A DNA stretch of 64,000 bases from Flavobacteriaceae bacterium (GTDB lineage: Bacteria; Bacteroidota; Bacteroidia; Flavobacteriales; Flavobacteriaceae). A model generated the notes under the pieces. That model made no database searches and had not been told where the DNA came from. It was given only the letters and a program-made list of their open reading frames with translations. The translations under genes and the position numbers were made by a program. The stretch is from the NCBI GenBank assembly GCA_013373385.1, contig JABXHX010000021.1:9499-73498 (forward strand). Reading direction: 5' to 3'. Each line of letters opens with the position of its first letter. Position 1 is the first letter of the stretch. This document shows, in pieces, positions 35,740 to 51,448 of the stretch.

Positions 35740-36723
35740 CTAAAGAATACCTCTATTAACCATTTCCCAGTATGATTTTCCCTGAGGTGTTAATTCACAT
35801 CCTTTTTCATATATAGCTGCCCAATACATGTCTTTTTTCCCTTCGGGCAATTCTTTCTTTATAGGGATAACGAGGTTAACACGATTGTAAAGTTTAAGGA
35901 TAGTAAATTTTTCAACATTCTTAGTAATTGCTGTTTTTTCAGTATGCTCAAATGTCCTATTTAATTTAAACTTATAATCTGGGTGTTTAAATAGTATTGT
36001 AATTTGCCTAAGCTCATCTGGAATAATTTGAGATTTAATTTTTCTAAGTGAAATATATCTTCTAACGTTAGTTATAAAAATAGGACGTTGCGCTTTTTCT
36101 CCCATAGCCTTATCAATATATCCATAAACATTACCAGGAGTTATTTCTCCTATAATACTTGCAGCACCACCTTCAAGAGCATGACAAAATAGTTTAGTAA
36201 AGATTCCTTCGCCATCAATTTCTGTAGAATATTGATTAGCTGCTGAGGCAGCAAGAATAGTTACTCCTTCTTTAATTCTTACTAAATCACTACTAATAAA
36301 ATCTTTTGCAAAACTTCCTGAATGACAACAATCAAAAATTATAATCTTATTCCGAGCAGGTGAATTATTAACCTCTTGTAAAATGTCATTCATTGATAAA
36401 CCATGATATCCTTTTTCATTTTCAGTGGTTACTAAATACCCCTGTCCTTTTCGAATAGCTCCATGTCCAGCAAAATAAAATAAAGAAGTTTCTCTTTCAT
36501 CTCTAAATAATTCTTCAATCTTTTTCCTTAAAAAGTCTGTCGTAATAATATTCTTTTCTCCTGAAATTATTGTTTCTGTGTGAAAGTTTTTTTCTTTTCC
36601 ATTAATTCCTTCATTATAAGATAATACTTTTTCAATCTTATTAGCATCATTAATGCATCCAAATAATGATGTTTTGTGGTCATAGTGATTGATTCCTACA
36701 ATTAAAGCTTTTCTCCCACCCAT
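35740..36723 (-). CDS. Caspase-like protease (peptidase C14), type IV Thoeris-like effector
   Basis: RKALIVGINHY, L.GCINDA, FYFAGHG (His) and FDCCHSG (Cys) dyad, GIFTKLFCHALEGGAA; extra C-terminal domain of about 90 aa. Confidence 0.92.
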   Translation of the reverse strand: MGGRKALIVGINHYDHKTSLFGCINDANKIEKVLSYNEGINGKEKNFHTETIISGEKNIITTDFLRKKIEELFRDERETSLFYFAGHGAIRKGQGYLVTTENEKGYHGLSMNDILQEVNNSPARNKIIIFDCCHSGSFAKDFISSDLVRIKEGVTILAASAANQYSTEIDGEGIFTKLFCHALEGGAASIIGEITPGNVYGYIDKAMGEKAQRPIFITNVRRYISLRKIKSQIIPDELRQITILFKHPDYKFKLNRTFEHTEKTAITKNVEKFTILKLYNRVNLVIPIKKELPEGKKDMYWAAIYEKGCELTPQGKSYWEMVNRGIL

Positions 36724-36725
36724 TA

Positions 36726-37127
36726 TTATACTACTTTTTTTATTGCTTCAACTATTGATTTTCCTTGCCATTTAACAATTTCATCGGCATTGTTTTTAAC
36801 TAGTATAGATGTTTTTTCAGCACCCCAAGGTTCAATTGCTATTATAGGTTTCCCTTGCTCAATAGCTATATTTATTTCTTTTTGTATCCACTTACTATAG
36901 TTAGCATATACACCTGCTAAAATTAGAATGCAATGTGTTCCTTTTATTTTATTTTCAATAGCAACTTTAAGTTGTTTGTCTGTTCCATTTGTATGTACTG
37001 GATCATTTTTAGGAACAGAATAGTCATAAAATAATAAGTTTTGGTCTTTTAATAATTTGGTAATTTTATCGTAGGCATCTCCATAAGCCCATGAATGACT
37101 GATAAACAATCGATATATCTTTGGCAT
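36726..37127 (-). CDS. TIR-domain protein, Thoeris ThsB/MTH538-like
   Basis: RLFISHSW, DYSVP, SKWIQKEI (catalytic Glu), GKPIIAI, ADEIVKW. Confidence 0.9.
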   Translation of the reverse strand: MPKIYRLFISHSWAYGDAYDKITKLLKDQNLLFYDYSVPKNDPVHTNGTDKQLKVAIENKIKGTHCILILAGVYANYSKWIQKEINIAIEQGKPIIAIEPWGAEKTSILVKNNADEIVKWQGKSIVEAIKKVV

Positions 37128-37140
37128 AATATTTTTGTTA

Positions 37141-37707
37141 TTAGTGAATTGTAGGGCTTTGACCTCTTAACCAATCACTCAATTGAACATATTTATTTAC
37201 ACTTTCATTAATCCAAAGAACTTTTTTATGCGGTATCATTTTAGTTCCTTCTTTAGTTATGTATGGGTATACTGACAAAAATTCTTGTCCTTTAAAACTT
37301 GACGATTCATAATCAGTAATAGGAAGGATTGAGCATCTACTCTCTTTACCATCAACAAAACCCAATTCCCAAGGCATCCATTTTGAATTGGAAGCATTTT
37401 CAGAAGTGGCATAGACAAGAGACTTTGATTGCCTCATTCTATTCCTTATATGATCTACGGTTCTTTTGGTTACACTACTTCTACTAAGATGTGGATCTAT
37501 AATCCAATCCACGTAAACTGTAAATCCTAAATCTGATAATTCTAAAAACAACCCTTCGATAAATTGTTTATCTTTATAGCTATGTGATAAAAAAATATCA
37601 AATTGAGTCAATTTTTTACTTTCATTTAGTACACTACTAAATGTTCTTTTTCCCTTTAATCCACTACTTGATAGATTTCTTAGATAATCCTTTGTATAAA
37701 ATCCCAT
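37141..37707 (-). CDS. TIR-domain protein (second, TIR_2-like)
   Basis: FDIFLSHSYKD, VYVDW, SKWMPWELG (catalytic Glu), ILPI. Confidence 0.88.
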   Translation of the reverse strand: MGFYTKDYLRNLSSSGLKGKRTFSSVLNESKKLTQFDIFLSHSYKDKQFIEGLFLELSDLGFTVYVDWIIDPHLSRSSVTKRTVDHIRNRMRQSKSLVYATSENASNSKWMPWELGFVDGKESRCSILPITDYESSSFKGQEFLSVYPYITKEGTKMIPHKKVLWINESVNKYVQLSDWLRGQSPTIH

Positions 37708-37710
37708 TTT

Positions 37711-38517
37711 TTATTTATTGTTTATTAATTCTTTAATATTTACTCTCCTTGCTATCAATTTTGATTGACTATTACCAGATAACATACCTCTTGCATTTTT
37801 GTTTGAAGGAGAAGGAGCTTCAAAAACCTTTTTTTCAAATTCTATTAAGTCTATAAAAACTGTCACATTATCCGACCAATCATGTATCAGAACATTTCCG
37901 CTAGATTTAGACACCCTTAGACTAGAACTAGCTGAAATATTTACTGAACGAGATTTGATACCTGTAAGATCAGTTTTTAATAAAATTTCTGATGATTTTG
38001 ATTTTGATTGAGCCATGAAGGCTTTTTTTGCTACTGTAACAGAGGTGACAAGATATGTGTCATCCCAAACCAATTGCTTTCCTTTAGAGTTAATCTCTTT
38101 TTCTAAAAAAAGAAGATCATCCAATTCGCGTTTATCACAATCAATAGCTAAAAGAAATATAGCTCCTTCAGAAAAAAATTGGATATGTAAATCTTTTTCA
38201 ACCTTAGGAAGTGATTTTTTTCCAAGATTAGCACCGCCTTTCAGTCCAAATTGAATATTAACTTCATCCTTACTTGAAAACCTATATGTGTCAGGTGTTC
38301 CTGAAAATTCTGGTATATTAAAATCCACTCCTAACTTTTCAAGAGAGGTTATCTTTTTAAAACTTCCATATGGAAGTTTCTTACCAAAAAGAGGTCTTCT
38401 GGCATTGGGAAATTTAATAATATCTCCAACTTCAATTTTTTCGCCCGGTAGGTATACTGCTATTTTACCTAGCTCTTCAGCAATTTTTTTAGAATATTGT
38501 ATTTGTAAATCTGACAT
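37711..38517 (-). CDS. Gasdermin-like pore-forming protein (putative)
   Basis: 268 aa from MSDLQ. AVYLPGEKIEVGDII, F..ITSL..LGVDF, YLVTSVTVAKK and VTVFIDLIEF echo gasdermin strand motifs, with Ser/Gly-rich amphipathic stretches and a short C-terminal tail. First gene of an operon with a caspase. Confidence 0.65.
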   Translation of the reverse strand: MSDLQIQYSKKIAEELGKIAVYLPGEKIEVGDIIKFPNARRPLFGKKLPYGSFKKITSLEKLGVDFNIPEFSGTPDTYRFSSKDEVNIQFGLKGGANLGKKSLPKVEKDLHIQFFSEGAIFLLAIDCDKRELDDLLFLEKEINSKGKQLVWDDTYLVTSVTVAKKAFMAQSKSKSSEILLKTDLTGIKSRSVNISASSSLRVSKSSGNVLIHDWSDNVTVFIDLIEFEKKVFEAPSPSNKNARGMLSGNSQSKLIARRVNIKELINNK

Positions 38518-38619
38518 AATAGAATCATTTTGATAAAACAAAATTGAATCTATTTATACTTTTATACTTCGTATTATATGATGATTTTTATGTAATCTAA
38601 TATGGGTAGTTATCTCTAA

Positions 38620-39252
38620 TTAAATCTGTATGTAACCGCTCTTTATAGCAAATTTTGTTAATTCAATAGAGTTTCTAACTCCAGTCTTGGCAATAAGGTT
38701 TCTTCTATGGGTGTTAACTGTAGCCTCAGAAACATACAATTTTTCAGCAATAATAGAAGCTTTATCACCGTTGGCTATAAGTTTTAAAACTTCTATTTCC
38801 TTTTTGGTAAGTTCAATTTCTCCTATAACATTTTTTGATCTCATACTATTCATAACAGTATTTTTAACATCTTCTCCAAAATACCCTTTATTATCATTCA
38901 GTGTGTTAATAGCAGTAATCAATTCTTCTTTTCCTTTGTTTTTTAGAATATACCCATTTACTCCAGCCTCCATCATTTTACGAATAAAACCTATTTCATC
39001 ATGCATCGTTAAAATAAGCACCTTCGTCTTTGGGAATTTTTCTTTTATAATCTTTGTTAAGTCTAGACCATCAATTTCTGGCATTTCAATATCAAGTACT
39101 GCAATATCTACTTCATTTTTTTCAAGTAATGAAAGAGCTTCTAGTCCATTTTCAGCAGTACCTACAATACAAATATTATCATTTTCGGTAACAAGAGAAG
39201 TTAATCCTTCAATGATTATTTTATGGTCGTCAGCAATTATAATTTTAGTCAT
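38620..39252 (-). CDS. NarL/LuxR family response regulator
   Basis: IIADDH, VLDIEMP, LTMH, YILK; LTKKEIEVLKLIANG...TVNTHRRNL helix-turn-helix. Confidence 0.95.
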   Translation of the reverse strand: MTKIIIADDHKIIIEGLTSLVTENDNICIVGTAENGLEALSLLEKNEVDIAVLDIEMPEIDGLDLTKIIKEKFPKTKVLILTMHDEIGFIRKMMEAGVNGYILKNKGKEELITAINTLNDNKGYFGEDVKNTVMNSMRSKNVIGEIELTKKEIEVLKLIANGDKASIIAEKLYVSEATVNTHRRNLIAKTGVRNSIELTKFAIKSGYIQI

Positions 39253-39263
39253 TGTTATATATT

Positions 39264-41357
39264 TTAAGATAAAGGGATATCAATTGAAATCATAGTCCCA
39301 ATATTAATTGTTGAGTCGATTAAAAAATTTCCGTTAAGAGCATCAACCCTTGATTTTACATTTATAATTCCAATACCAGTGTCCTCTTCCTTTGATAAAT
39401 TAAATCCGACACCATCATCTTCAATAATAATATTGAGTATTCCCTTGTCTTTAATTAACTGTATCGTAATCTCTTTTGCTTTAGCATGTTTAAGCACATT
39501 ACTAACTAGCTCTTGTACAATACGATACACGCCTAACTCTATATCATTACCAAGTCTATTATCAACCCCATAAGTAATTAAGACAACAGATATTTGCTTA
39601 CTTTTTTCTAAAGTATCTTTAAGGTTTTCAAGAGCAGTAACTAAACCAAACTTTGTAAGAAGTCCAGACCCTAGATCATGAGAAATCTTTCGAACCTCAC
39701 TACAAGCATCATCAAGTAATTCATTTGCTTTTTGATATTGTGTTATATTTTCTTTCTTAAGATTTTCAACACTTTCTTCGACGGATTTAAAGTACATTTT
39801 TACTGTTGATAAAATACTTCCTATTCGATCATGTAAATCCTCTGAAATCCTCTTTCTCTCTTTTTCTTGTAAATCAAGCATATTATTAATCGCATTAATT
39901 TCTTGGCTTTTTAAAAAACTATCTATCTCTTGTTGTTTAATTTTTATTTGATTATCTCTAAGTTTAATTTTTTCTTTTTGAGACCTATTCCTTAAAGCTA
40001 AATAAGACAAAATCATAACTAATAATAATCCTATAGCTAGACTAATAATAACTGTTTTTTTTCGTTGATTATCTGCTTTGAATTTTTCAAGGTTTATTTT
40101 AGTAATCTCTTGAGTATTTTTAATTTCTTTATATCTAGCATTTGTCTGTACGGCCTCTTTATATTGCTTTTCTATTTTGTTTTTAAGAATGATATACTTA
40201 TTACTATAATTTAACGCTGTTTTGTATTCTTTTAACGAAGTATGGCAGAGAGATAAGTCATTAAGTATTTTTAACTGACTTATTACATATCCTGATTTTT
40301 TTGATATCTCAAGAGCTTTATTATAGAACTTAACTGATTGCAAATAATTAGATTTTAAATAATAAATATCTGCCATATTCATAGTTGTCGATAAGGTAGT
40401 TTGAATATTTGCTTTAACTAGATTACTCTTTTGGTAATATAAAAGAGCTAAGTCTAGATTTCCTTTTTGATGGTATAATGCCCCTATATTATTTAAAATT
40501 CGAGTATCTTTACTTTCTATCCCTAGCTCTTTTTTTAACTTTTGAGCTTTCTCGTAATAAAAAAGAGACCTATTAAATTTTTCCAGTTCATAAAAACATA
40601 TTCCAAAATTATTATAAACTTTCACTAATTCATATTTGTCATTATAGGTTAAAAAAATCCTTTCACTTTCATTAAGGTGCTCAATACTTTTATTATAGTC
40701 TTCAAGCTTAATATATAATGTTGAAAGACCTAACAATGTAAATGCTAATCCTTTATTATTTTTTAACTGCTTTCTGATATCAAGACTTAAATGATAACTT
40801 TTAGCAGATAATTCATAGAGTCCAAGTTCAGAATAAATAAATCCTAAGTTGCTTGAGACTAAAGCAACTATATTTTCTTTTTTTAATTCTTTAAAATTCT
40901 TAAATGACTTTTTAGTATAGTCTAAGGCTAAATTCAAATTGCCAATATTTTTATATATCTCTCCTAGCTGATTTTGTGCTCTACCAATTCCATATTGATT
41001 ATTAATTCTTTTTTCCCTTTCTAAAACCTCTAAATAAATTTTCTCAGACTTTTTAAATTCTTTTTGATAAATATAAATAGCTCCTAATCTATTTAAGCCT
41101 GTTGTTTTTCCCTTATAAAAAGAAAGAGAATCACTTATTTTTATTGCTCTAGAAGCATACTCAATTGCTAATGAAAAATTTGTTTTATTATATTCCCATG
41201 CTAAATCATTAAGAATATTTACAGTAGAAGTATCAATTATTTTTTCTTTTCTTAATTTATCTTCAAGATTATTAATAGTAGAAATGTTTTGCCCATAGCA
41301 ACTACTAATGGCTATTAACAACCTAGTTAAAAACAAAAAAAGATAATGTTTTTTCAT
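39264..41357 (-). CDS. TPR-repeat sensor histidine kinase (HisKA_3 type)
   Basis: Signal-like N-terminus, many TPR repeats, one TM helix, ERKRISEDLHD, QELVSNVLKHA, DDGVGF, GIGI. Confidence 0.92.
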   Translation of the reverse strand: MKKHYLFLFLTRLLIAISSCYGQNISTINNLEDKLRKEKIIDTSTVNILNDLAWEYNKTNFSLAIEYASRAIKISDSLSFYKGKTTGLNRLGAIYIYQKEFKKSEKIYLEVLEREKRINNQYGIGRAQNQLGEIYKNIGNLNLALDYTKKSFKNFKELKKENIVALVSSNLGFIYSELGLYELSAKSYHLSLDIRKQLKNNKGLAFTLLGLSTLYIKLEDYNKSIEHLNESERIFLTYNDKYELVKVYNNFGICFYELEKFNRSLFYYEKAQKLKKELGIESKDTRILNNIGALYHQKGNLDLALLYYQKSNLVKANIQTTLSTTMNMADIYYLKSNYLQSVKFYNKALEISKKSGYVISQLKILNDLSLCHTSLKEYKTALNYSNKYIILKNKIEKQYKEAVQTNARYKEIKNTQEITKINLEKFKADNQRKKTVIISLAIGLLLVMILSYLALRNRSQKEKIKLRDNQIKIKQQEIDSFLKSQEINAINNMLDLQEKERKRISEDLHDRIGSILSTVKMYFKSVEESVENLKKENITQYQKANELLDDACSEVRKISHDLGSGLLTKFGLVTALENLKDTLEKSKQISVVLITYGVDNRLGNDIELGVYRIVQELVSNVLKHAKAKEITIQLIKDKGILNIIIEDDGVGFNLSKEEDTGIGIINVKSRVDALNGNFLIDSTINIGTMISIDIPLS

Positions 41358-41424
41358 AACAAAAAGAAAAGGCTTTACCTTTTAAAAATAGTAAAGCCAT
41401 TTAAGATAAGCAATTAAAATTTAA

Positions 41425-41586
41425 TTAATCTTCATCATCCTCTTCTCCAGGGCGAATGATTTCTCCTCCAGAGCTAGGAACTGTATTTGGTTTTTCTTTT
41501 GGTTTTTCTTCTGGAGTATCTTGATTTTCTTCTACATCCATAAACATTCTTTCTTTTTCAAACTGTTCATTGTAATTGTTATTCAT
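41425..41586 (-). CDS. Small acidic peptide, 53 aa, absent from the ORF track
   Basis: Hand translation: MNNNYNEQFEKERMFMDVEENQDTPEEKPKEKPNTVPSSGGEIIRPGEEDDED. A TAnnTTTG element lies 25 nt upstream. Confidence 0.6.
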   Translation of the reverse strand: MNNNYNEQFEKERMFMDVEENQDTPEEKPKEKPNTVPSSGGEIIRPGEEDDED

Positions 41587-41611
41587 AATATCTCTTTTTA
41601 ATTAATAACTC

Positions 41612-41619
41612 CAAAATTA
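41612..41619 (-). promoter_or_regulatory. Bacteroidota -7 element for the peptide/kinase/regulator unit
   Basis: Plus-strand CAAAATTA reads TAATTTTG on the minus strand. Confidence 0.45.
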
Positions 41620-41725
41620 ATGCTCTATCTAATAAAAAAAATCATCATAAAGTATTGTTTTCTTCTCATCATAAGTTGTAACTAAAATCATGTTTTATAA
41701 TTAAAAAACCCATCTCGTTTATATA

Positions 41726-41733
41726 TAGTTTTG
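41726..41733 (+). promoter_or_regulatory. Bacteroidota -7 element for the cupin/radical SAM operon
   Basis: TAGTTTTG matches TAnnTTTG, 46 nt before the cupin ATG. Confidence 0.4.
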
Positions 41734-41779
41734 AACTATCATCTTGATTTAGAATACAAAATCAAATAAAATACAATTT

Positions 41780-42160
41780 ATGAAATTATCATACTTTAAA
41801 GATCTTAAATGGATATCTTCTCCAGAACTAAACTGTTTTATTGGAGTTGAATCAAACTTACCTTCTAATGATAATGCAGATATTGTCTATGCAAAAATAG
41901 AAGGAAAACAAAAGTTAAAAAAGCATTTTCATATTAGACCAACAGATTCTGGTTACGAAAGTTTTTTCTTTTTTAATGGGGCCAACATTAAAGTTCATTT
42001 AAAAGAAAAAACAAACCATATCAAATCTTCATTGCCCTTTCATCTAACATTCTTTACAAAAGAAGAGCATGGTATTGAAAACTTGTCCGATAAAGAATTA
42101 GTTTTCGAAGTTTTATGCGCTCCTAAACATCAAGAAGGTGAAGAAATACTTACTGAATAA
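41780..42160 (+). CDS. Cupin-domain protein
   Basis: HFH...YE (motif 1) and FFTKEEHGIEN (motif 2) metal-binding pattern. Confidence 0.75.
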   Translation: MKLSYFKDLKWISSPELNCFIGVESNLPSNDNADIVYAKIEGKQKLKKHFHIRPTDSGYESFFFFNGANIKVHLKEKTNHIKSSLPFHLTFFTKEEHGIENLSDKELVFEVLCAPKHQEGEEILTE

Positions 42161-42168
42161 GCCTAAAA

Positions 42169-43044
42169 ATGAATAAAATTTATACCATAGACTGGAGAAT
42201 AACTGGGCTTTGCAATGAAAGATGTCCTTTTTGTTATGGTCCAGAAAAACATATTCATCCACCAATAGATATAATTAATAAAATAACTAGCGCCATCTGT
42301 AATAGTAACTTTAATGTTGTTCGATTTTCTGGAGGAGAGCCTCTTTTGATTTCTAATCTAAGCGAAGTCATTAAAAGACTTAATACTAAAAAAATAAAAG
42401 TTGTTTTATCTACTAATGGTTTTTCTTACTTAAAAAAGAAAAATGATTTTGAACCAAATATTAGCAAATTAAACCTTTCATTAGATGGGTACGATCAGAA
42501 AAGTCATAGTATAAATGGAAGAAGTAAAAAATCTTTTACAGACATTATTAATATTCTTGAATATTATAATTCTTTTTCAAAAAATCTTTTTTCAATAAAA
42601 ATAGGAACAATCATCACATCAAAAAATATATCAGTCAAATTTCTTTTAAAGATGTACTATTTTTTAAAACAGTACTCAATAATTGATAGGTGGAAGATTT
42701 ATCAATATGTCCCTGAAGGTCCCATCATAGATATGAACTTATCGGTTAATGATGATTCTTTTAATGAATTAGAATCCACTTTTTTTAAAGCCATTAAACC
42801 TTCTAGTGATAGAAATGATTTTACAATAAAGTTTAGCTCTATACTTCAAAGAACCCAAGCTTATCTCATAATTCAACCGTATGGAAAAGTTTTTATCCCA
42901 ATCCATAATGGTAATTATACTAAAGAAGTTTATCTCGGAAATATTTTGGAAGATAATATAACTACTATAATTAATAATTGGTTTAAAAAAGGAGGAGATA
43001 GAAAAAAACACCTAAACAATAATAGCATTTTAAATAATGAATAA
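42169..43044 (+). CDS. Radical SAM protein, viperin-like
   Basis: CNERCPFC (CxxxCxxC), FSGGEPLL, STNG, LSLDG, KIGTII..N, RWKIYQ, AYLIIQPYGKV; no SPASM cysteines. Confidence 0.88.
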   Translation: MNKIYTIDWRITGLCNERCPFCYGPEKHIHPPIDIINKITSAICNSNFNVVRFSGGEPLLISNLSEVIKRLNTKKIKVVLSTNGFSYLKKKNDFEPNISKLNLSLDGYDQKSHSINGRSKKSFTDIINILEYYNSFSKNLFSIKIGTIITSKNISVKFLLKMYYFLKQYSIIDRWKIYQYVPEGPIIDMNLSVNDDSFNELESTFFKAIKPSSDRNDFTIKFSSILQRTQAYLIIQPYGKVFIPIHNGNYTKEVYLGNILEDNITTIINNWFKKGGDRKKHLNNNSILNNE

Positions 43045-44032
43045 AATAATACTTGATAAAATAGATAAGAAAATTCTATTTGAAATAGATAGAAACCCAA
43101 CGATTACAATCGAAAGTTTAGCAAAAAAAACTAGCTCAACTATCGAAAATGTTTCTTTTAAAATTTCTAAACTCTTTAAAACAGGAATAATTAAGTATTC
43201 TATGCCTATAGTTAATCTAGATAAATTAGGGTTCAGTATTTTTCTTTTTCATATTAAAATAAGTGATATTAATAAATCAAAAATCATTATTGATGTTTTT
43301 ATAACCAATGAACATATTGCTTGGCTAGTTAAAACCTCTAAAAAAAATGTTTTATTGGGAGCATTATTTGCTAAAAGTGCTAATCAATGCAACGAAATTC
43401 TAATTTCAATAACACAATCTACCAACAACAATATCAAAGAAATCCAGACATCTTTAGTGTATGAAAAATATGTTCTTGGTCAACGATATTTAATAATTGA
43501 TGATAAAATAACAGATTTTATGTTTGATAATTCAAGAATAGCCTATGACGGAGTTGAAAGGGATTTTCTTACTGTAACTGAAAGAAACATACTGTTTAAT
43601 ATAAGAGAATTAAAATCAAATTCTTTAAATAATATAACTGAACACACAAACTATAATTTAACTCAGATTAATCAATTAATAAGAGATTTAAAACGTAGAG
43701 ATATAATTACAAAATTTCAACCTGTTTTTGACGTAAAGAAAATGAATTATAAATGGTTTTTAATTTCATTAAAAACAGTCTGGTTAACAAAAGAAATTAA
43801 AAACAAATTTATTCAATATCTCCATTCTATTACTAAAATTGTTCACATAAACTGTATGCTTGGCACCTGGGATATTAATTTTGAAATTCATGTTAAAAAC
43901 AAAAAAGAGACAGAAGATATTTTAACTGTTATAGAAGAAAAGTTTCCAAATTTAATAAGTCAAAAAGATGTACAAGAAATATTGGAAGAGTATAAATTCA
44001 ATTTTTTAATTGACTGTGTTTTAAAATCTTAA
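43037..44032 (+). CDS. Tandem Lrp/AsnC-type regulator (two wHTH + RAM repeats)
   Basis: LDKIDKKIL...KL.KTGII...VNLDKLG and LTVTERNIL...L.RRDII..F.PVFDVKKM...MLGTWD repeats. Confidence 0.78.
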   Translation: MNKIILDKIDKKILFEIDRNPTITIESLAKKTSSTIENVSFKISKLFKTGIIKYSMPIVNLDKLGFSIFLFHIKISDINKSKIIIDVFITNEHIAWLVKTSKKNVLLGALFAKSANQCNEILISITQSTNNNIKEIQTSLVYEKYVLGQRYLIIDDKITDFMFDNSRIAYDGVERDFLTVTERNILFNIRELKSNSLNNITEHTNYNLTQINQLIRDLKRRDIITKFQPVFDVKKMNYKWFLISLKTVWLTKEIKNKFIQYLHSITKIVHINCMLGTWDINFEIHVKNKKETEDILTVIEEKFPNLISQKDVQEILEEYKFNFLIDCVLKS

Positions 44033-44034
44033 TT

Positions 44035-44478
44035 ATGAATCTCTTAATTCATTCTAGCTTAGACCACAAAGATAAATTACTTGACTGTGCCAATAAATTT
44101 AAAAACATTGGTTTATCAATCATATTCCCAGAATTAAAAAGATTTCAACATATTAGGGACAAACAGAATAATCAATTATTATTCAACAAAATAAAAAACA
44201 AATTATCTATTGAAAATATAAAAAATGTAGAAAAATGTGATTATCTACTTATCGTAAATCCTAATCATAGAGGTATCGAAAATTATATCGGAGGGAATTC
44301 CTTTTTAGAAATGGTTGTTGCTTTTTATTTAAAAAAACCTATTTTCTTGACTAATCCGATACCTGAAAATTTACCATACACAGAAGAGATAAAATCTTTC
44401 TTTCCTTTAGTAATTTGTTTGAAAAATATAACTAAAAAATCATGGGAAAATTATGTCAAAACCGCGTATATTCGTTAG
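44035..44478 (+). CDS. Nucleoside 2-deoxyribosyltransferase (NDT)-like Rossmannoid protein
   Basis: IKNVEKCDYLLIVN, YIGGNSFLEM (conserved Glu helix) and AFYLKKPIFL resemble NDT/nucleotide N-glycosidase folds. Confidence 0.55.
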   Translation: MNLLIHSSLDHKDKLLDCANKFKNIGLSIIFPELKRFQHIRDKQNNQLLFNKIKNKLSIENIKNVEKCDYLLIVNPNHRGIENYIGGNSFLEMVVAFYLKKPIFLTNPIPENLPYTEEIKSFFPLVICLKNITKKSWENYVKTAYIR

Positions 44479-45391
44479 TTCAACATATTATGACTTAAAG
44501 TTTATAAGAGGTACTTTAGAAACCTTTATAAATGAGTATGGCTTTGAACCAGTTCTTTTTGAAAAAGGGCATGTAACCTACAATAATGATTTTTCAATAG
44601 AATATTCTTCCTACAAAGAAGTCACAAAATCTGATATATTGATATTTGTTATTGGTGGTTCTTATGGAACAAAAGCAAATAAAAAAAATGAAATAGATTT
44701 CAACACATATAATTCTATTTCAAAAGAAGAGTATAAGGTCGCATTAGAAAACAATATCCCTACTTATACTTTTATTCTCGCAGAGATAGTAAATGAATAT
44801 GAAATTTTTAAACTTAATAGGAATAAAGATATTACATATTCAACTACAAAAACAATTGAAATTTTTAAGCTTCTAGACTTTATTTATGGTTTAAATGAAA
44901 ACAATGTTGTAACTCCTTTTAATAGTATTTATGATATTTTAAATTTTTTAAAAGTGCAATGGGCTGGATTATTTCATGAGTTTTTAATAAATAAAAAAGA
45001 GCAATTAAATATAAACAATATAAAGAATGCTATTAATGAATTAAAAGATATTGCATCTCGGTTAGAAAAATATAATGAAAAGATAATTCTACAAATAGAT
45101 GCCAAATCAGCCAAGGAATTACTTCAAGAAAAACAAGAACTATTACAAAGAAAAGAATTAGAAAAATCTTTTAATCAATTTTGCGATACAACTTTTGGTA
45201 AGTTTATACTTAAATATTTTGACTTTGACAACGACCAACAATGGGTTGACATGATAATAAAAAGTGAAAATCTTATCTCTTTTTTGAAAGCTTGTAAGGT
45301 ACCTCAAAAACAAATCAGCTATATAGTACAAAATGATTCTTCTGAAAATGAATTTTTAAATGTCAAAAAAATAATAGAAGGATTTATTTAG
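44453..45391 (+). CDS. DUF4062 domain protein (TIR/NDT-like fold) with a C-terminal coiled coil
   Basis: RIFVSSTYYDL..IR, EV.KSDILIFVIGGSYG, SISKEEY..A; predicted coiled coil around INNIKNAINELKDIASRLEK. Confidence 0.85.
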   Translation: MSKPRIFVSSTYYDLKFIRGTLETFINEYGFEPVLFEKGHVTYNNDFSIEYSSYKEVTKSDILIFVIGGSYGTKANKKNEIDFNTYNSISKEEYKVALENNIPTYTFILAEIVNEYEIFKLNRNKDITYSTTKTIEIFKLLDFIYGLNENNVVTPFNSIYDILNFLKVQWAGLFHEFLINKKEQLNINNIKNAINELKDIASRLEKYNEKIILQIDAKSAKELLQEKQELLQRKELEKSFNQFCDTTFGKFILKYFDFDNDQQWVDMIIKSENLISFLKACKVPQKQISYIVQNDSSENEFLNVKKIIEGFI

Positions 45392-45474
45392 TAGATAATA
45401 TCTTTTAAATATTTAATTATAAAATGTAGTAAAGTACTTAGAATTATAGGTCCTTTCTATGTCATTTTGAAGAT

Positions 45475-45501
45475 AAAACCGTAGAATTTATCTACGGTTT
45501 T
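45475..45501. terminator. Hairpin between convergent genes (probable bidirectional terminator)
   Basis: AAAACCGTAGA-ATTTA-TCTACGGTTTT, a perfect 11-bp stem. Confidence 0.6.
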
Positions 45502-45525
45502 GTTACTTTGCTAAATATTTTTATG

Positions 45526-46008
45526 CTATTTACTTGAAATAATACTACCATTTAAAGAAATAATATCCCCACGAGATGATTTTAAATCACTCCCTTTCTT
45601 ACGCAGTAAACGTTGTGTATTAAACAGTGAACGACATTTAATGTTGAACTCTGTATAATTCACAGCATCTTCTTTACTTTTCAATGATGCTACATAAGCC
45701 TCATAGAGTTTAGCATTGCTCAGTTGGTTACCTTTTACTTTCAGAATGATATCAAGTGCAATTGAAGCAATAGCGTTCAATCCTTGTTGTGTTGAGAAGT
45801 TAAAACCAAGGTCTTTAATCTTTTTCTGTTGTTGGTCATCAGCATACTTCAGTAATACAGAAATATCCTTATGATAAGCTCTTAAGCGTTCAGCAATAAC
45901 ACGTTTTTCTTCTTTTGCCTTTTCAATCTGTTCTTCTGATTGTTTAAGTAGCTCTTGATCTGTTTTGATGTTTTCAATTAATACATCAACAATACTTGCA
46001 TTGTTCAT
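45526..46008 (-). CDS. Hypothetical protein with an N-terminal coiled coil
   Basis: 160-aa ORF with a heptad-rich N-terminal half. Confidence 0.75.
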   Translation of the reverse strand: MNNASIVDVLIENIKTDQELLKQSEEQIEKAKEEKRVIAERLRAYHKDISVLLKYADDQQQKKIKDLGFNFSTQQGLNAIASIALDIILKVKGNQLSNAKLYEAYVASLKSKEDAVNYTEFNIKCRSLFNTQRLLRKKGSDLKSSRGDIISLNGSIISSK

Positions 46009-46872: not shown

Positions 46873-47661
46873 TTAGATAGGATAGTTAGCAGTCAATACT
46901 TCAGTCTTTACTTTTCGCCTTACCCCTGCTACTGCTTTTGAAGCAGAAATTATTTTGGTAACTGTCTTAGTGTACCAACCATTCTTTTTTATATACTGAT
47001 CAAGAATTTCTGATGGATAAGAACTCAAGAGAAATTTTCCTTGTACACGGGATAACGTTTCAAGTAATCGTGTGTAATCTTCTTTTGTGTATCCACTATA
47101 ATGTCCCATATTTGAATTGAAATACGGAGGATCAACATAATGAAAAGCATCAACGGTATTTCGATTTGCAATTACCTTACAGGCATCATTATTTTCAATT
47201 TGTACTCCTTTAAGGCGTTTTGCAATAGATTCATCAAAAATGAGTTTTCTGTTCCAAAATGATTTTACTCGTTTATTATACTTATCATACCCCCATGAGC
47301 CTATCTGACATGAAAAGCCCATGTTGGTAGCAATGTAGAATGCCCATGCCTGTTGTAGTTTACTAAACAAGTGTGGCATTTTGTAAATACTCATTGCGAC
47401 ATTGTATGCTACACGAGAGAATAAGGTTGCTTCAACTTTTGATTTAAGCTTATCAAAATCTGTCTGCACTACTTCGTAAAAATTTACTACCATATTATTG
47501 ATATCATTAATCGTTTCTGCTTTTGATTTTTCCTTTGCAAAGAATATTGCTCCTCCGCCAAAAAAGGCTTCAGTATATATTTTGTGTGGTGGAATGAGCG
47601 GAAGAATGGTTGGAATCATATTAATTTTTCCGCCATAGTATGATATGGGAGTTTTAGGCAT
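46873..47661 (-). CDS. Orphan DNA adenine methyltransferase (Dam/D12 class)
   Basis: YYGGK, EAFFGGGA (motif I), INDIN, YVDPPY (motif IV), KFLLSSY, EVLTANY; no adjacent endonuclease. Confidence 0.92.
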   Translation of the reverse strand: MPKTPISYYGGKINMIPTILPLIPPHKIYTEAFFGGGAIFFAKEKSKAETINDINNMVVNFYEVVQTDFDKLKSKVEATLFSRVAYNVAMSIYKMPHLFSKLQQAWAFYIATNMGFSCQIGSWGYDKYNKRVKSFWNRKLIFDESIAKRLKGVQIENNDACKVIANRNTVDAFHYVDPPYFNSNMGHYSGYTKEDYTRLLETLSRVQGKFLLSSYPSEILDQYIKKNGWYTKTVTKIISASKAVAGVRRKVKTEVLTANYPI

Positions 47662-47789
47662 GATCGTGTTAATTACGGTTAATAAGAGTAAAAGTAGAGA
47701 CAGACAGTTGTTCCTTTTCTAGCTATGTGACAAGAGGTATATCCGTTAGGACATTAATTCAATCTTGTACGATGAAATTTCTCAACGTA

Positions 47790-48257
47790 CTAGATTAATC
47801 CTTTCTGAGCCATTGAATGATAGTCTTCAGAACTCATTACAATGTGATCAAGCAGGTTTATCTCAAAGAGTTTACACATCTTCTGTAGTCGTTTTGTCAA
47901 TTCAACATCAGATGCTGAAAAACTTAAAGAACCAGATGGATGATTGTGCATTACAATAATAGCAGAGGCATTTTTAAGCAGTGCTAGTTGTATTATTTCT
48001 CTGATGTTAACGGGTACACAGTGTATTGTTCCACTTGAGATTTGTACGATACTCAATACCCGATTGGCATGGTTAAGTAATAGTAGCCAAAAAAACTCTT
48101 TAAAGTCTAGTTGCTTGTTATTACTTATCCTCTTTACTGCCTGTACCACATCATGTGCTTGAGTTATGTATAGCATTGTTTCAAACAATGGTCGTACATA
48201 GTGAATTTCAATAGAGCTACTGCTTAATATCTCAGTAGATAGCATAGTTGTTTTCAT
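47790..48257 (-). CDS. RadC-like JAB-domain protein
   Basis: KEFFWLLLLN, HNHPSG...S.SD, LLDHIVM. Confidence 0.88.
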   Translation of the reverse strand: MKTTMLSTEILSSSSIEIHYVRPLFETMLYITQAHDVVQAVKRISNNKQLDFKEFFWLLLLNHANRVLSIVQISSGTIHCVPVNIREIIQLALLKNASAIIVMHNHPSGSLSFSASDVELTKRLQKMCKLFEINLLDHIVMSSEDYHSMAQKGLI

Positions 48258-48324
48258 TACTTATTTATTTAAAGGTTCATTTGAAATCAGTATGAGTGAA
48301 CCAAACAATTCAAAAAAGACGTGA

Positions 48325-49524
48325 TTAAGGCATGAAGTTTAGAAACAACACAGATGTGTAATGAATGCAAGTAGCTGAGAAACCTTTACTAGGCTTTCCA
48401 TTAATCATAAGTTTTAAAAAGATGTCATAATTCTCTAAATTGGTAAAATCAGATGCTATAAACTCAGGGGCAAAAATTTGCTCCAAATATTTCGCATCTG
48501 ATTGCCCGGTACGAAAGGAAATGATGGTTCCTACATTACCTAACACGGAGTTCCGTATATTTACATCAAGTTGATGCAAGTATTGATGTGCCATAACCAG
48601 CGAAACGTTAAACTTTCGTAACTCAGAGAGCATTGAAGCAACCGAATCAGTGGTGTAGTGTTGGAACTCATCTAAAAACACTGCTACGGGTTTTCGCTCT
48701 TCCTCAGTAGAGTCAATACGAGAAAACGAAGCATTCATAATAGTGTTGAGCAGTAACGAACCGATAATATGAGAGCTATCAATTCCTAAATCTCCTTTGT
48801 TTAAGTTGATTAACACTATTTTGTTGGTATCCATCGCACGACGGAGTGAAATTTCTTTTTTATTTTGAATCAAAAATCGCTTAATTGATGGATGCACCAA
48901 AAAAGCTCCTACCTTGTTGAGAATAGGGATAATGTCGGTTTTAGTATATTTTTCAAATTCTTTGTACCAAAAACGTTGCACATCTTCATTCACAATATTT
49001 TTGATACACTGTTCTCGATACGAGAGGTCGTGAATAATACGCGTAATATCGCCAAAATCGGCTCTCTGTTGGTCTAACAGCGTCAACAGGATATACCGTA
49101 GAATATGTTCTAATTTTACGCCCCACGCTCCTTTCCATAGCTTTTTGAAGGTGTCTAATATTCCAGAGGCAACCAGTGAACGTTTTTCATACGATACTGA
49201 TTTCAGTGGGTTATACCGATAGCTCATACTTGGATTGGGAATATCAAGATAAATGAGGTCTTGTTTTCTTGATGCTGAAATATGGTTGCGAATTGTTTTA
49301 ATAAGGTCTCCATGTACATCAAAAACGAAGACTGCACGCCTATGAATGATGTCTTGTAAAATAAGTGTTGTTAACAAATTGGTTTTTCCAGTACCTGTTT
49401 TACCGAGAATATAGGTATGTAATAATCGATCCTTTTGATATATCCCAAAGAGCTGTCGTTGCTCTCTAAAATTAGTTTTTGCAAAGTAACTAACTTCCTT
49501 ATTATTGTTATGCTCACCATTCAT
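48325..49524 (-). CDS. Second VirD4/TraD-like ATPase (core domain only)
   Basis: HTYILGKTGTGKT Walker A, FDVHGD, FLDEFQHY Walker B, SELRKF, AHQYLHQL, NVGTIISFR. Confidence 0.85.
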   Translation of the reverse strand: MNGEHNNNKEVSYFAKTNFREQRQLFGIYQKDRLLHTYILGKTGTGKTNLLTTLILQDIIHRRAVFVFDVHGDLIKTIRNHISASRKQDLIYLDIPNPSMSYRYNPLKSVSYEKRSLVASGILDTFKKLWKGAWGVKLEHILRYILLTLLDQQRADFGDITRIIHDLSYREQCIKNIVNEDVQRFWYKEFEKYTKTDIIPILNKVGAFLVHPSIKRFLIQNKKEISLRRAMDTNKIVLINLNKGDLGIDSSHIIGSLLLNTIMNASFSRIDSTEEERKPVAVFLDEFQHYTTDSVASMLSELRKFNVSLVMAHQYLHQLDVNIRNSVLGNVGTIISFRTGQSDAKYLEQIFAPEFIASDFTNLENYDIFLKLMINGKPSKGFSATCIHYTSVLFLNFMP

Positions 49525-49554
49525 ACAGCCAGTATGATGGTTTCCTTAACGAAC

Positions 49555-49596
49555 AAAAGACATGATGATGTAGGACTACACATCACCACGTCTTTT
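49555..49596 (-). terminator. Strand-specific RNA hairpin upstream of the second ATPase
   Basis: On the minus strand AAAAGACGTGGTGATGTG pairs with TACATCATCATGTCTTTT using three G-U pairs; these are A-C mismatches on the plus strand. Confidence 0.5.
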
Positions 49597-49630
49597 TATA
49601 ATACTCACTGAAAGATAAACTTCTTCTGTT

Positions 49631-49795
49631 ATGAAAACAAACAACGAAAAACACATTACTAATTTCATTCAAGGCATTTGTAAGGGAAAAACAAAAGAAG
49701 AACAGAAACAAGCAGAACTTAATTTTTTACGATTTATCAGCCTTGTGGAAAGAATTACCAATCGATTATCTTCTGAGAAAACCCATAAAAAGTAA
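49631..49795 (+). CDS. Small protein, 54 aa, upstream of integrase 2; absent from the ORF track
   Basis: Hand translation: MKTNNEKHITNFIQGICKGKTKEEQKQAELNFLRFISLVERITNRLSSEKTHKK; predicted amphipathic helix. Confidence 0.5.
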   Translation: MKTNNEKHITNFIQGICKGKTKEEQKQAELNFLRFISLVERITNRLSSEKTHKK

Positions 49796-49861
49796 CTCGC
49801 TTCACTGCGAGATGGGAGTTATACTCACACACGCCATTATTCGCTTAACCAATAAACAACT

Positions 49862-51448
49862 ATGAAAGAAGTATATGGATATATTAGAGTATCGGATGTA
49901 AAACAAAAGGATGGTGCTTCATTAATTGAGCAAAAACGTATCATTAAAGAATTTGCTAAAAAGAATAAGTTAAAAATTATTAGGTTTTATGAAGAAAACA
50001 AAACTGCTGCAAAACAAGGTCGTCCACTTTTTGACAAAATGATACAGAATTTAAGAGCAAATAAAGCACAAGGGGTAATTATTCATAAGATAGATAGAAG
50101 TGCACGAAACCTTCATGACTGGGCAAATATTGGAGACCTTATTGATATAAATATTGATGTATTCTTTGCCCATGAAAGTCTTAATTTAAATGAACGTAGC
50201 GGTCGATTATCCGCAGATATACAGGCAGTTATGGCATCAGATTATGTTCGCAATTTAAGGCAAGAGACCATCAAGGGACTTTATGGACGACTCAAACAAG
50301 GCTTCTATCCTTGGAGAGCACCAATTGGCTATGTAGATAATGGAAAAGCAAAAGAAAAAACTGTTAATACTGCAACAGCAGAATTAATCAAGCAACTTTT
50401 TGAGTTATATGTTTCAAAAAACTATAACATAAAAAACCTTTCTAAAGAAATGGAAAAAAGAGGCCTAAGAAACAAACGTGGAAATAGAATTTGTAAAAAT
50501 GGAATAACAAGGATTCTTCGGAATCCATTCTACATAGGTCTAATGAAAATAAAAGATAAGGTCTTTCAAGGAAATCATCATCCAATCATTGATCCACGAA
50601 TGTTTAAACAAGCACAATTAAAAATTAAAGATAGACAAAGAAATACAGGATTTACCCATCATTTCCTCTTTAGACGACAAATTCGCTGTGAACTCTGTAA
50701 TTATATTATGTCAGGAGAAAGACAAAAAGGGCACATCTATTATCGGTGTTCAACTAAAGGCTGTTTAACCAAAACAATAAGAGAAGATACAATTGAACAT
50801 TATATACAAAATATTCTTAAAACCATTTCGCTTTCAAAAAAAGAGATTGTGTTATTAAAAGCTGTACATCTTGAAAGTAAAAATGATTGGTTAGCTACTC
50901 AAGAAAAAATTTCACAAAGTAACAAGTTACAAATGCGTCAATTAGAAATGAAAGATCAAAAGCTCGTTGATATGTACCTGGAAGATGCTATTGATAAAAA
51001 TCGCTATAATGAGCAAAAAGAAGAACTTCTTATAGAATTACAGAGAATTAAAAGCAGACAAAGCCAACTTTTAGAGTCAAAAGACCTTATCTTTGAGAGT
51101 ATTGAAATTTTCCTCGAACTTTGTAAAACCCCTATAGAATCTTATATTTCTGCGATTTTTGAAGAAAAACGAGAATTGCTTAAAATTATAACCTCGAACA
51201 TTACGGTAAACCAAAGAAAGCTAAGTTTTACAATGGTTTCTCCGTTTTATGAACTCGCAAATCGAGACATTTTAACTTTATGTACGCCTAATCGGGACAA
51301 TAGACGAATGCTGTACCGTAAAATTGTCTATACGGATAAGAATACATCTTCTATCGTTCCAAAGCCTATGAATAAAGAGCAAATCAAAATCTTTTATCAA
51401 TTTCTAATCAATGCTGCTTCAACATTATCAGAAATAAATAAGCTTTAA
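49862..51448 (+). CDS. Large serine recombinase (integrase 2)
   Basis: YGYIRVS catalytic Ser, HKIDRSARN, APIGY, RNPFYIG, CELC...YYRC...C zinc ribbon, coiled coil. Confidence 0.93.
   Translation: MKEVYGYIRVSDVKQKDGASLIEQKRIIKEFAKKNKLKIIRFYEENKTAAKQGRPLFDKMIQNLRANKAQGVIIHKIDRSARNLHDWANIGDLIDINIDVFFAHESLNLNERSGRLSADIQAVMASDYVRNLRQETIKGLYGRLKQGFYPWRAPIGYVDNGKAKEKTVNTATAELIKQLFELYVSKNYNIKNLSKEMEKRGLRNKRGNRICKNGITRILRNPFYIGLMKIKDKVFQGNHHPIIDPRMFKQAQLKIKDRQRNTGFTHHFLFRRQIRCELCNYIMSGERQKGHIYYRCSTKGCLTKTIREDTIEHYIQNILKTISLSKKEIVLLKAVHLESKNDWLATQEKISQSNKLQMRQLEMKDQKLVDMYLEDAIDKNRYNEQKEELLIELQRIKSRQSQLLESKDLIFESIEIFLELCKTPIESYISAIFEEKRELLKIITSNITVNQRKLSFTMVSPFYELANRDILTLCTPNRDNRRMLYRKIVYTDKNTSSIVPKPMNKEQIKIFYQFLINAASTLSEINKL

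Follow-up and report, generated by a model that had tools for sequence, protein, structure and literature searches.

Viperin, one of the few immune enzymes that humans and bacteria share, makes products that are leads in the search for antiviral nucleotides. The prokaryotic viperins (pVips) and the Ophion system are the closest known systems to the gene cassette analyzed here, which lies in a 64,000-nt stretch of DNA (the window) from a Flavobacteriaceae bacterium (contig JABXHX010000021.1, positions 9,499 to 73,498) and contains a gene for a radical S-adenosylmethionine (SAM) enzyme at window positions 42169–43044 (+ strand). Ophion, which occurs in Gammaproteobacteria, contains the radical SAM protein OpnA, which is reported to be related to but distinct from pVips, and which works with the PHP protein OpnB and the phosphoribosyltransferase (PRTase) OpnC (bioRxiv 10.1101/2025.09.30.679545). 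The radical SAM enzyme of the window resembles pVips in its fold, which extends to the C-terminal extension, in having no auxiliary cluster, in the CxxxCxxC and GGEP motifs and in the defence-island setting, while it differs from them by its obligate partners, which are a protein of nucleoside 2′-deoxyribosyltransferase (NDT) fold, a tandem Lrp/AsnC protein and a cupin, and by its fusions to TIR and caspase domains, all of which viperins lack. The resemblance to Ophion consists in a radical SAM enzyme working with nucleotide-metabolism enzymes, while the partners are different, PHP and PRTase proteins in Ophion versus cupin, tandem Lrp/AsnC (Lrp2x), NDT-fold and DUF4062 proteins here, with OpnA compared by its description only. 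The five cassette proteins gave no match to PHP or PRTase when scanned against Pfam, NCBIfam and PADLOC. The gene had previously been interpreted, from the sequence alone, as encoding a lone enzyme, a divergent viperin relative with altered substrate-binding residues. It is instead the core of a conserved five-gene cassette, in which it is often fused to the tandem Lrp/AsnC module, and sequence comparisons and structural models suggest that this cassette is probably a rare, horizontally spread, nucleotide-centred defence or conflict system with the radical SAM enzyme as its catalytic core.

Relation of the radical SAM enzyme to viperins

The open reading frame (ORF) starts with ATG and encodes 291 aa. 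Its translation contains all the motifs quoted in the original prediction, which are DWRIT at residues 8–12, the cluster loop C15-x3-C19-x2-C22 (nt 42211–42234), the GGEP SAM motif at residues 55–58 (nt 42331–42342) and, in the C-terminal half, KIGTII (144–149), RWKIYQ (174–179), LSVNDDSF and AYLIIQPYGKV, which begins at residue 231. The whole protein has four cysteines, at positions 15, 19, 22 and 44, and none beyond residue 44, so that SPASM cysteines are indeed missing, and a SPASM/twitch or MoaA-type second cluster is impossible. Pfam detected only the generic Radical_SAM domain (1.9e-14). Judging from these features, the enzyme looks functional, with the radical SAM machinery intact. The viperin motifs given for comparison in the original prediction were found in real viperins, both in a Bacteroidota pVip (TVNFH..C, KINSVIN, RWKILQ and SYVMVDPAGRF) and in viperins from the PDB (SVNYHFT, KLNTVV, RWKVFQ and SYLILDEY).

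Profile comparisons showed that viperins are the family most similar to this enzyme. Its best NCBIfam match was the prokaryotic viperin equivalog NF038283 (92.8 bits, E 2e-26), in which residues 5–270 aligned to positions 2–268 of the 281 in the model. This score is below the curated cut-off of 180 bits, while the true pVip from the same phylum, Bacteroidota, scored 324.6 bits. The PADLOC pVip models matched the enzyme over the full length with 93–105 bits (7e-31), which implies that annotation pipelines may mislabel it as a viperin. When the profile of its family was compared with PDB sequences, viperins scored 88–100 bits (1e-27), MoaA 74 bits and BlsE 72 bits. The NCBIfam MoaA model (TIGR02666) gave 60.4 bits against a cut-off of 284 bits and covered residues 11–190 only, and the SPASM families (NirJ, AhbC/D, PqqE and sactisynthases) gave 30–43 bits against cut-offs of 400–650 bits, with matches restricted to the N-terminal core.

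The structural model is consistent with these results. An AlphaFold2 model calculated from 52 homologues had a predicted local distance difference test (pLDDT) score of 92.7 and a predicted template modeling (TM) score of 0.91, and its best match among PDB structures in Foldseek was mouse viperin with CTP (6Q2P; TM 0.77/0.76, 297 columns, 19% identity, E 9e-15). All other viperin structures followed, while BlsE, SuiB and SkfB were weaker, and MoaA reached TM 0.60–0.65. The model shows the viperin fold, with a partial TIM barrel and the C-terminal extension and without an auxiliary cluster. The resemblance to viperin is thus far above chance. MoaA, which also has a radical SAM core and whose substrate is a nucleoside triphosphate, was the second-best family by profile (60–74 bits), and identity with it was rejected on the missing C-terminal cysteines and second [4Fe-4S] cluster, the low score and TM values, and the split in the tree described below. 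Identity with SPASM or NirJ-type enzymes was rejected on the lack of cysteines after residue 44 and on scores far below the cut-offs.

Two phylogenetic trees were calculated, one of 182 sequences using FastTree and one of 95 sequences using IQ-TREE (LG+C20 PMSF), and both were concordant. The viperin set in these trees is small, as the 182-row tree contains eight fungal sequences, one Bacteroidota pVip and one Nematostella fragment, and five of the fungal sequences were kept in the 95-row tree, because the search with a PDB-derived fungal viperin fragment retrieved fungal viperins only. In the IQ-TREE phylogeny, viperins and the radiation that contains the DWRIT sequences were separated from MoaA-like and other radical SAM proteins with 100/100 support. 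The phylogenetic check suggested with the original prediction thus placed the query beside viperins, and clustering with MoaA, PqqE or NirJ was not seen. A separate 330-aa open frame of the same genome (L013) grouped with MoaA-like sequences. Viperins themselves were monophyletic at 100/100 with the query outside them, and the query was located in a 70-row clade (99/97) that excludes viperins and, inside this clade, in a DWRIT subclade. Constraining the query subclade to group with viperins cost 58 log-likelihood units and was rejected by the approximately unbiased (AU) test (p = 0.003).

The motif preceding the cluster loop gave the same picture. Among the 264 closest relatives, which were collected from libraries of 5.8 and 1.8 billion proteins, none contained N-[YFW]-H; at this place they had D/E-W-R, D-W-W, D-W-Q and similar sequences, usually followed by C..C[YF]GP. 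Eight of the ten viperins in the tree had N-x-H, and N-Y-F was present in the remaining two, which are copies of a second viperin-like enzyme from fungi. The DWRIT clade is marked by D/E-W-R-I-T before CxxxCxxC and by Y-G-P or Y-A after it. Hence, viperin is the nearest characterized relative of the enzyme by profile, fold and tree, which upholds the predicted kinship, while the enzyme is not a divergent viperin, as had been proposed, and belongs to a separate clade in a large radiation adjoining viperins.

To compare the substrate pockets, the query was aligned with viperins using L-INS-i, and mouse numbering was applied. The positions compared were those taken to contact CTP in the mouse viperin–CTP structure (K120, K220, N222, R245, K247, Y302, the β8 loop and R347). 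The literature supports this list in part, with C314 and K319 confirmed, and with K220, N222 and K247 named as pocket residues in a docking study. In the query, D8-W9-R10 replaces N-x-H (N77 to D8 and H79 to R10), K120 is replaced by V50 and N222 by G146, while the base-reading β8 loop (C314/K319) and the arginine of the C-terminal ERGG (R347) are not conserved in the clade. The residues common with pVips are the lysine of K-I/L-x-T-V/I, the W-K of RWKxFQ and the tyrosine of SYL, and K220, K247 and Y302 are accordingly kept as K144, K176 and Y232. R245 is retained as R174, but in the immediate subclade of the query only. Overall, about three to four of roughly 10 CTP-contacting positions are retained, and the clade has new invariant residues, which are W9, R10, R228, P244, G257/N258 and W271. 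The alignment therefore agrees with the earlier statement that the substrate-binding residues are altered.

These data bear on the possibility that the enzyme is a genuine divergent pVip, which would convert CTP, UTP or GTP to chain-terminating 3′-deoxy-3′,4′-didehydro nucleoside triphosphates (ddhNTPs). The full-length matches to viperin models as the best ones in NCBIfam and PADLOC, the viperin fold at TM 0.77, the conserved equivalents of K220, K247 and Y302, together with R245 in the query, and the location inside a defence island are all consistent with such an assignment. It is nevertheless very unlikely, given that the score is about half of the cut-off that the pVip from the same phylum exceeds, that the N77, H79, K120, N222, β8-loop and ERGG positions are changed or unconserved, that the fully supported viperin clade excludes the query and the joint grouping is rejected, and that the partners in the cassette differ from those of pVips, with no nucleotide kinase in the locus. 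On the other hand, a nucleotide or nucleotide-derived substrate, bound in a rebuilt pocket, is somewhat favoured, because the nearest characterized enzymes, viperin, MoaA and BlsE, all have nucleotide or nucleoside substrates, three to four phosphate-binding positions are kept, and the partner proteins have nucleotide-type folds.

The five-gene cassette and its recurrence

The radical SAM gene is located in a row of five genes, all on the + strand, which are separated by +8, −8, +2 and −26 nt. The recurrence of this arrangement was surveyed in about 22 independent loci from Bacteroidota, Firmicutes and Methanothrix. The same five genes were found with different flanks at 76%, 57% and 44% identity of the radical SAM protein (L001, L007 and L004, respectively), and again at 42% identity in L051, where the Lrp module is fused to the radical SAM protein. 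In versions from Firmicutes and Lentimicrobiaceae there is an additional class I methyltransferase gene upstream and a gene for a single-pass membrane protein before the NDT-fold gene. This inserted protein of 146–189 aa is encoded between the radical SAM–Lrp fusion and the NDT-fold protein in L067 (8454–9023), L055 (9957–10523), L016 (3380–3844) and L060 (1819–2259), and it is missing from the cassette of the window.

About half of the representatives at 50% identity (E < 1e-30) are fusions. At least 15 representatives are radical SAM–Lrp2x fusions of 615–690 aa, and others are radical SAM–Lrp2x–methyltransferase, TIR–radical SAM–Lrp2x, caspase–radical SAM–Lrp2x (five), WD40–TIR–radical SAM–Lrp2x and cupin–radical SAM proteins. 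Every long member of the clade has the tandem Lrp module C-terminal to the radical SAM domain. The recurrent fusion is Rosetta-stone evidence that the radical SAM enzyme and the Lrp module work together. The cassette and the fusions make a simple reading of the enzyme as the source of another ddh-nucleotide less likely than a regulated multi-component system.

The third gene (43037–44032, +), the start of which overlaps the radical SAM stop by 8 nt, encodes a 331-aa tandem Lrp/AsnC-like protein with two units, each composed of a winged helix-turn-helix (wHTH) and a RAM domain. Pfam and NCBIfam identified an HTH_24/AsnC helix-turn-helix (HTH) at residues 6–53, and Lrp-like and AhbA-like halves. 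In profile comparisons both halves matched archaeal Lrp/AsnC regulators, with the best match to FL11 (54 bits, in the second half, profile positions 173–300), while the first half (positions 2–135) matched other Lrp/AsnC regulators, e.g., 7fby and LrpA. The RAM domains and linkers contain most of the conserved positions (EKYVLGQRYL, KFQPVxD, THIN, GxWDIxxEIH and KEHKFNFL), and the HTHs are variable.

The NirDL and AhbAB siroheme decarboxylases, which are tandem or paired Lrp/AsnC-like enzymes, likewise work beside radical SAM enzymes and have a RAM-domain surface that is conserved, which raises the possibility that the two proteins are a tetrapyrrole-modifying pair, the radical SAM enzyme being similar to NirJ, AhbC or AhbD. 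The second half of the 331-aa protein matches the AhbA model (5e-9), faint NirdL-like HTH matches are seen in relatives, and the radical SAM protein weakly matches NirJ, AhbC and AhbD (1e-10 to 1e-11). However, the latter matches amount to 40 versus 500–650 bits in the N-terminal core, the SPASM cysteines are missing, and the Lrp module is nearer to FL11-type regulators than to a NirD-like siroheme decarboxylase, which scored 31 bits against its profile. With no other genes of heme d1 or alternative heme synthesis in the cassette and with partners of nucleotide-type folds, this assignment is hardly credible.

The wHTH domains could alternatively be viewed as recognizing a small peptide encoded nearby, which the radical SAM enzyme would modify as a maturase of a ribosomally synthesized and post-translationally modified peptide (RiPP). 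Many radical SAM enzymes with nearby wHTH domains of the RiPP recognition element (RRE) type mature peptides, weak matches to sactipeptide and HxsC-type maturases were obtained, and small upstream ORFs (53–62 aa) are present in some loci. Against this, the enzyme has no SPASM or twitch cluster, the wHTHs are Lrp/AsnC-type domains combined with RAM domains and are not PqqD-like, no precursor gene is conserved with the cassette across loci, and the fold and profiles are closest to viperin, MoaA and BlsE, which act on nucleotides. A peptide substrate is thus most improbable.

The fourth gene (44035–44478, +) encodes p147, a 147-aa protein with a predicted fold of the NDT superfamily. The fold search was the only informative one, since p147 had no Pfam match and its profile gave nothing meaningful against PDB sequences. 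The AlphaFold2 model (pLDDT 95) was matched by Foldseek to NDT, YtoQ, the CMP N-glycosidases BcmB and MilB, and DNPH1 (E 4e-5 to 5e-3, TM 0.5–0.6), and Glu92 is at the position of the catalytic glutamate in 10 of 12 homologues. The p147 family is unusually conserved, forming 225 clusters at 50–65% identity, and it is the most faithful partner of the radical SAM enzyme, following it in 15 of the 17 loci that have sufficient downstream sequence.

The last gene (44453–45391, +), which overlaps p147 by 26 nt, encodes a 312-aa protein with a TIR-like DUF4062 domain (PF13271, 1.6e-15) and an uncharacterized C-terminal part, and it co-occurs with the other genes in L001, L004, L007 and L051. Glu93 in its S-x-[ST]-x-x-E-[YF] motif is invariant in seven aligned homologues. 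DUF4062 has been described as a TIR-like NADase, which forms the stand-alone anti-phage system Swarozyc, and some DUF4062 proteins are encoded in operons with other enzymes (bioRxiv 10.64898/2026.05.01.722283). The conserved glutamate suggests that the protein of the cassette may likewise be an NADase. Swarozyc differs in that it is a single protein with its own auxiliary domain, which senses the phage portal, while here DUF4062 is the fifth gene of the radical SAM operon or, beside a sister radical SAM enzyme, is fused to NUDIX.

The first gene (41780–42160, +) encodes a small putative metal-binding cupin of 126 aa. The protein alone had no Pfam match, and its profile weakly matched the Mn-cupin TM1459 (E 0.003). 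The metal site H49-x-H51...E...H97...N101 is conserved among 12 aligned homologues, and the relative P0141 is a cupin–radical SAM fusion with a Cupin_2 match. The cupin precedes, follows or is fused to the radical SAM protein in 15 of the roughly 22 loci. The sequence TAGTTTTG (41726–41733, +), 46 nt upstream of the cupin ATG, could be a Bacteroidota-type −7 promoter element. The consensus of this element in Bacteroidota is TAnnTTTG. A scan of the locus for sigma-70 promoters and terminators found sigma-70 sites no more numerous than in shuffled sequence.

The cassette is rare and patchy in its distribution. Profile searches of about 800 genomes, on which the prevalence figures are based, found it in one of 401 Bacteroidota genomes, and the 399 Clostridia genomes yielded no more than two matches, both weak, while scans of genome contigs and metagenomes with a single peptide pattern found 7 and 12 loci only. 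One weak Clostridia match is interrupted by two in-frame stops. The p147-like Clostridia frame in L076 (G653:C4:97401–97811), which is broken by two TAA stops, is a pseudogene or a recoded gene. In an Angelakisella metagenome-assembled genome (MAG), there is a 331-aa radical SAM ORF without the Lrp module (L015, 7687–8682), and the ORF that follows it, of 559 aa, is on the other strand. This genome lacks p147, and the gene may be a copy that has been disrupted.

No description of the cassette, of the radical SAM–tandem Lrp fusion or of p147 was found in literature searches, and there is no curated NCBIfam, Pfam or PADLOC family for the radical SAM clade, the fusion or p147. The "distinctive radical SAM" of the FtsH ternary systems (eLife 2020, PMC7159879) was considered as a candidate; it is described as a peptide modifier, and no link to the present family was established.

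Defence setting and possible mechanism

In the window, Thoeris-type TIR genes and a caspase gene adjoin the cassette. Unrelated loci have other known or candidate defence genes as neighbours, which are a methyl-directed restriction endonuclease (L004), DrmA (L016), PDC-S37/Hhe (L003), a PDC-S06 ATPase (L067), PD-Lambda-3_B with an RHS toxin (L070), TIR-NACHT (L008), and a TIR protein with a MoxR-type AAA ATPase (L019, Methanothrix). Recombinases or integrases are found near cassette loci, and the GC content at 40000–46000 of the window is 25–26%, compared with 30–35% in the flanks. The low GC content and the recombinase-type neighbours suggest that this region is an island acquired on a mobile element.

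Several details of these surroundings can be added. Directly upstream, on the − strand (35740–38541), there are genes for a 276-aa unannotated protein, two ThsB-type TIR proteins and a caspase (Peptidase_C14), of which the TIR and caspase assignments were confirmed by domain matches. A TPR-histidine kinase and a LuxR-type response regulator are encoded between this Thoeris-like operon and the cassette (38620–41357, −), and the pair keeps its position in the 76%-identical metagenomic island (L001, 2498–5194). Further downstream in the window (46873–51448) there are genes for a DNA methyltransferase, a RadC/JAB protein, a VirD4-like ATPase and a serine recombinase. In the Methanothrix MAG (L019, 4252–11902) the genes for the TIR protein and the MoxR-type AAA ATPase are followed by those for a 320-aa protein and a 1427-aa WD40–TIR–radical SAM–tandem Lrp protein, a layout which resembles the MoxR–vWA–β-propeller ternary conflict systems.

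The setting also bears on whether the cassette is a housekeeping or secondary-metabolite pathway, which would make a modified nucleoside or a nucleoside-antibiotic-like product under the control of an Lrp/AsnC regulator, with the defence neighbours incidental to mobility. The combination of a radical SAM enzyme and NDT-fold CMP hydrolases is known from blasticidin and mildiomycin synthesis (BlsE with BlsM; MilB, BcmB), and there, as in the cassette, a radical SAM enzyme from the neighbourhood of MoaA, viperin and BlsE is accompanied by a small protein of the NDT superfamily, both of which act on cytosine nucleotides or nucleosides in those pathways. BlsE matches the family profile with 72 bits, and MilB and BcmB are among the fold matches of p147. 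Tailoring steps are typical functions of cupins and class I methyltransferases, and Lrp/AsnC proteins are classic regulators. On the other hand, the cassette contains no gene for a glycosyltransferase, a non-ribosomal peptide synthetase (NRPS) or other peptide assembly, a transporter or resistance, and p147 has no sequence similarity to MilB or BlsM. The defence-island context, with known defence genes adjoining the cassette in at least seven unrelated loci, and the TIR, caspase and WD40–TIR fusions and the MoxR-type conflict locus are atypical of biosynthetic clusters. The Lrp module is often fused to the enzyme and conserved in its RAM and linker motifs, with variable HTHs, which is also at odds with a classic regulator. 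We consider an ordinary pathway of this kind the less likely reading but a serious alternative, at something like one chance in five.

Several observations weigh against a defence or conflict system all the same. The association with defence genes is qualitative, as neighbours were inspected in about eight loci and no enrichment was computed. The candidate catalytic glutamate of p147 is missing in two of the 12 homologues, and the Methanothrix and Angelakisella genomes with the radical SAM gene do not encode p147. With the triphosphate contacts K120, N222 and R347 lost and R245 unconserved, a nucleoside triphosphate substrate is not assured. The combination of cupin, methyltransferase and glycosidase-fold enzymes also fits an ordinary small-molecule pathway with an Lrp-type regulator. 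Finally, no members of the clade were found in the phage, plasmid or IMG/VR records searched, the IMG/VR matches having at most 27% identity over the protein length, and no p147 homologues were found in the phage or plasmid records searched.

If the cassette is a defence or conflict system, as we think probable, its parts could work together as follows. The radical SAM enzyme would reductively cleave SAM, and the resulting 5′-deoxyadenosyl radical would attack a nucleotide or nucleotide-derived substrate, held in a pocket that appears to retain part of the phosphate-binding set of viperin, with the rest rebuilt. The NDT-fold p147, presumably of the N-glycosidase or base-exchange type, and the cupin may make the substrate or tailor the product, a role which the methyltransferase may share in other lineages. 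The tandem Lrp/AsnC module would most plausibly be a ligand-binding, oligomerizing control element, and DUF4062 here, like the fused TIR and caspase domains elsewhere, would then be a proximity-activated effector. Ligand-driven assembly is documented for FL11-type proteins, and it would be in keeping with TIR, DUF4062 and caspase effectors that are activated by proximity. A more specific and speculative version, to which we give rather low odds, is an immune switch, in which the radical SAM enzyme would make or destroy a nucleotide-derived ligand, the RAM domains would read it, and Lrp oligomerization would fire the DUF4062 or TIR NADases and caspases. In such a switch radical SAM chemistry would serve signalling and not the production of chain terminators.

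A defence function would imply a new radical SAM product, either an antiviral compound or a second messenger. We know of no earlier immune role for a tandem Lrp/AsnC module, and the cassette would provide the first one. It would also be a defined five-gene unit, which is directly testable.

Nucleotide-linked operons in the wider radiation

According to the tree, canonical viperins make up a single branch within a larger radiation of enzymes with this fold, which is essentially unstudied. Genes of this radiation repeatedly adjoin those for nucleotide kinases, NUDIX hydrolases, TIR-like NADases and NDT-fold proteins, and one of its clades is tied to classic immune architectures by its fusions to TIR, caspase and WD40 domains and by its location in defence islands.

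In two E. coli conjugative plasmids, NZ_CP027324 (L072, 5980–7990) and NZ_CP045714 (L073, 5980–7977), a viperin-like radical SAM gene is found with genes for a deoxynucleoside kinase (dNK) and a NudI-type NUDIX protein. These radical SAM proteins are 25–27% identical to the query, and toxin–antitoxin genes flank the operon. A metagenomic relative (L010) has the radical SAM gene with dNK and PfkB–NUDIX. The radical SAM–dNK–NUDIX operon looks like another uncharacterized nucleotide-centred module of this radiation.

In a sister subfamily, which has neither the Lrp module nor p147, a stand-alone radical SAM protein is accompanied by a DUF4062–NUDIX protein of about 560 aa with an unknown middle part (L018, 9899–12561; L020, 10004–12547; L061, 449–3002). 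The D-W-W clade, of about 100 clusters from apparently high-GC, actinobacterial-like genomes, adjoins a PfkB-family kinase (L062, 6001–8021). The RSAD2/viperin labels that some of the D-W-W proteins carry at JGI look wrong, as the N-x-H motif is missing from them. In another branch the radical SAM gene is found with genes for a NUDIX protein and a B12-radical SAM protein.

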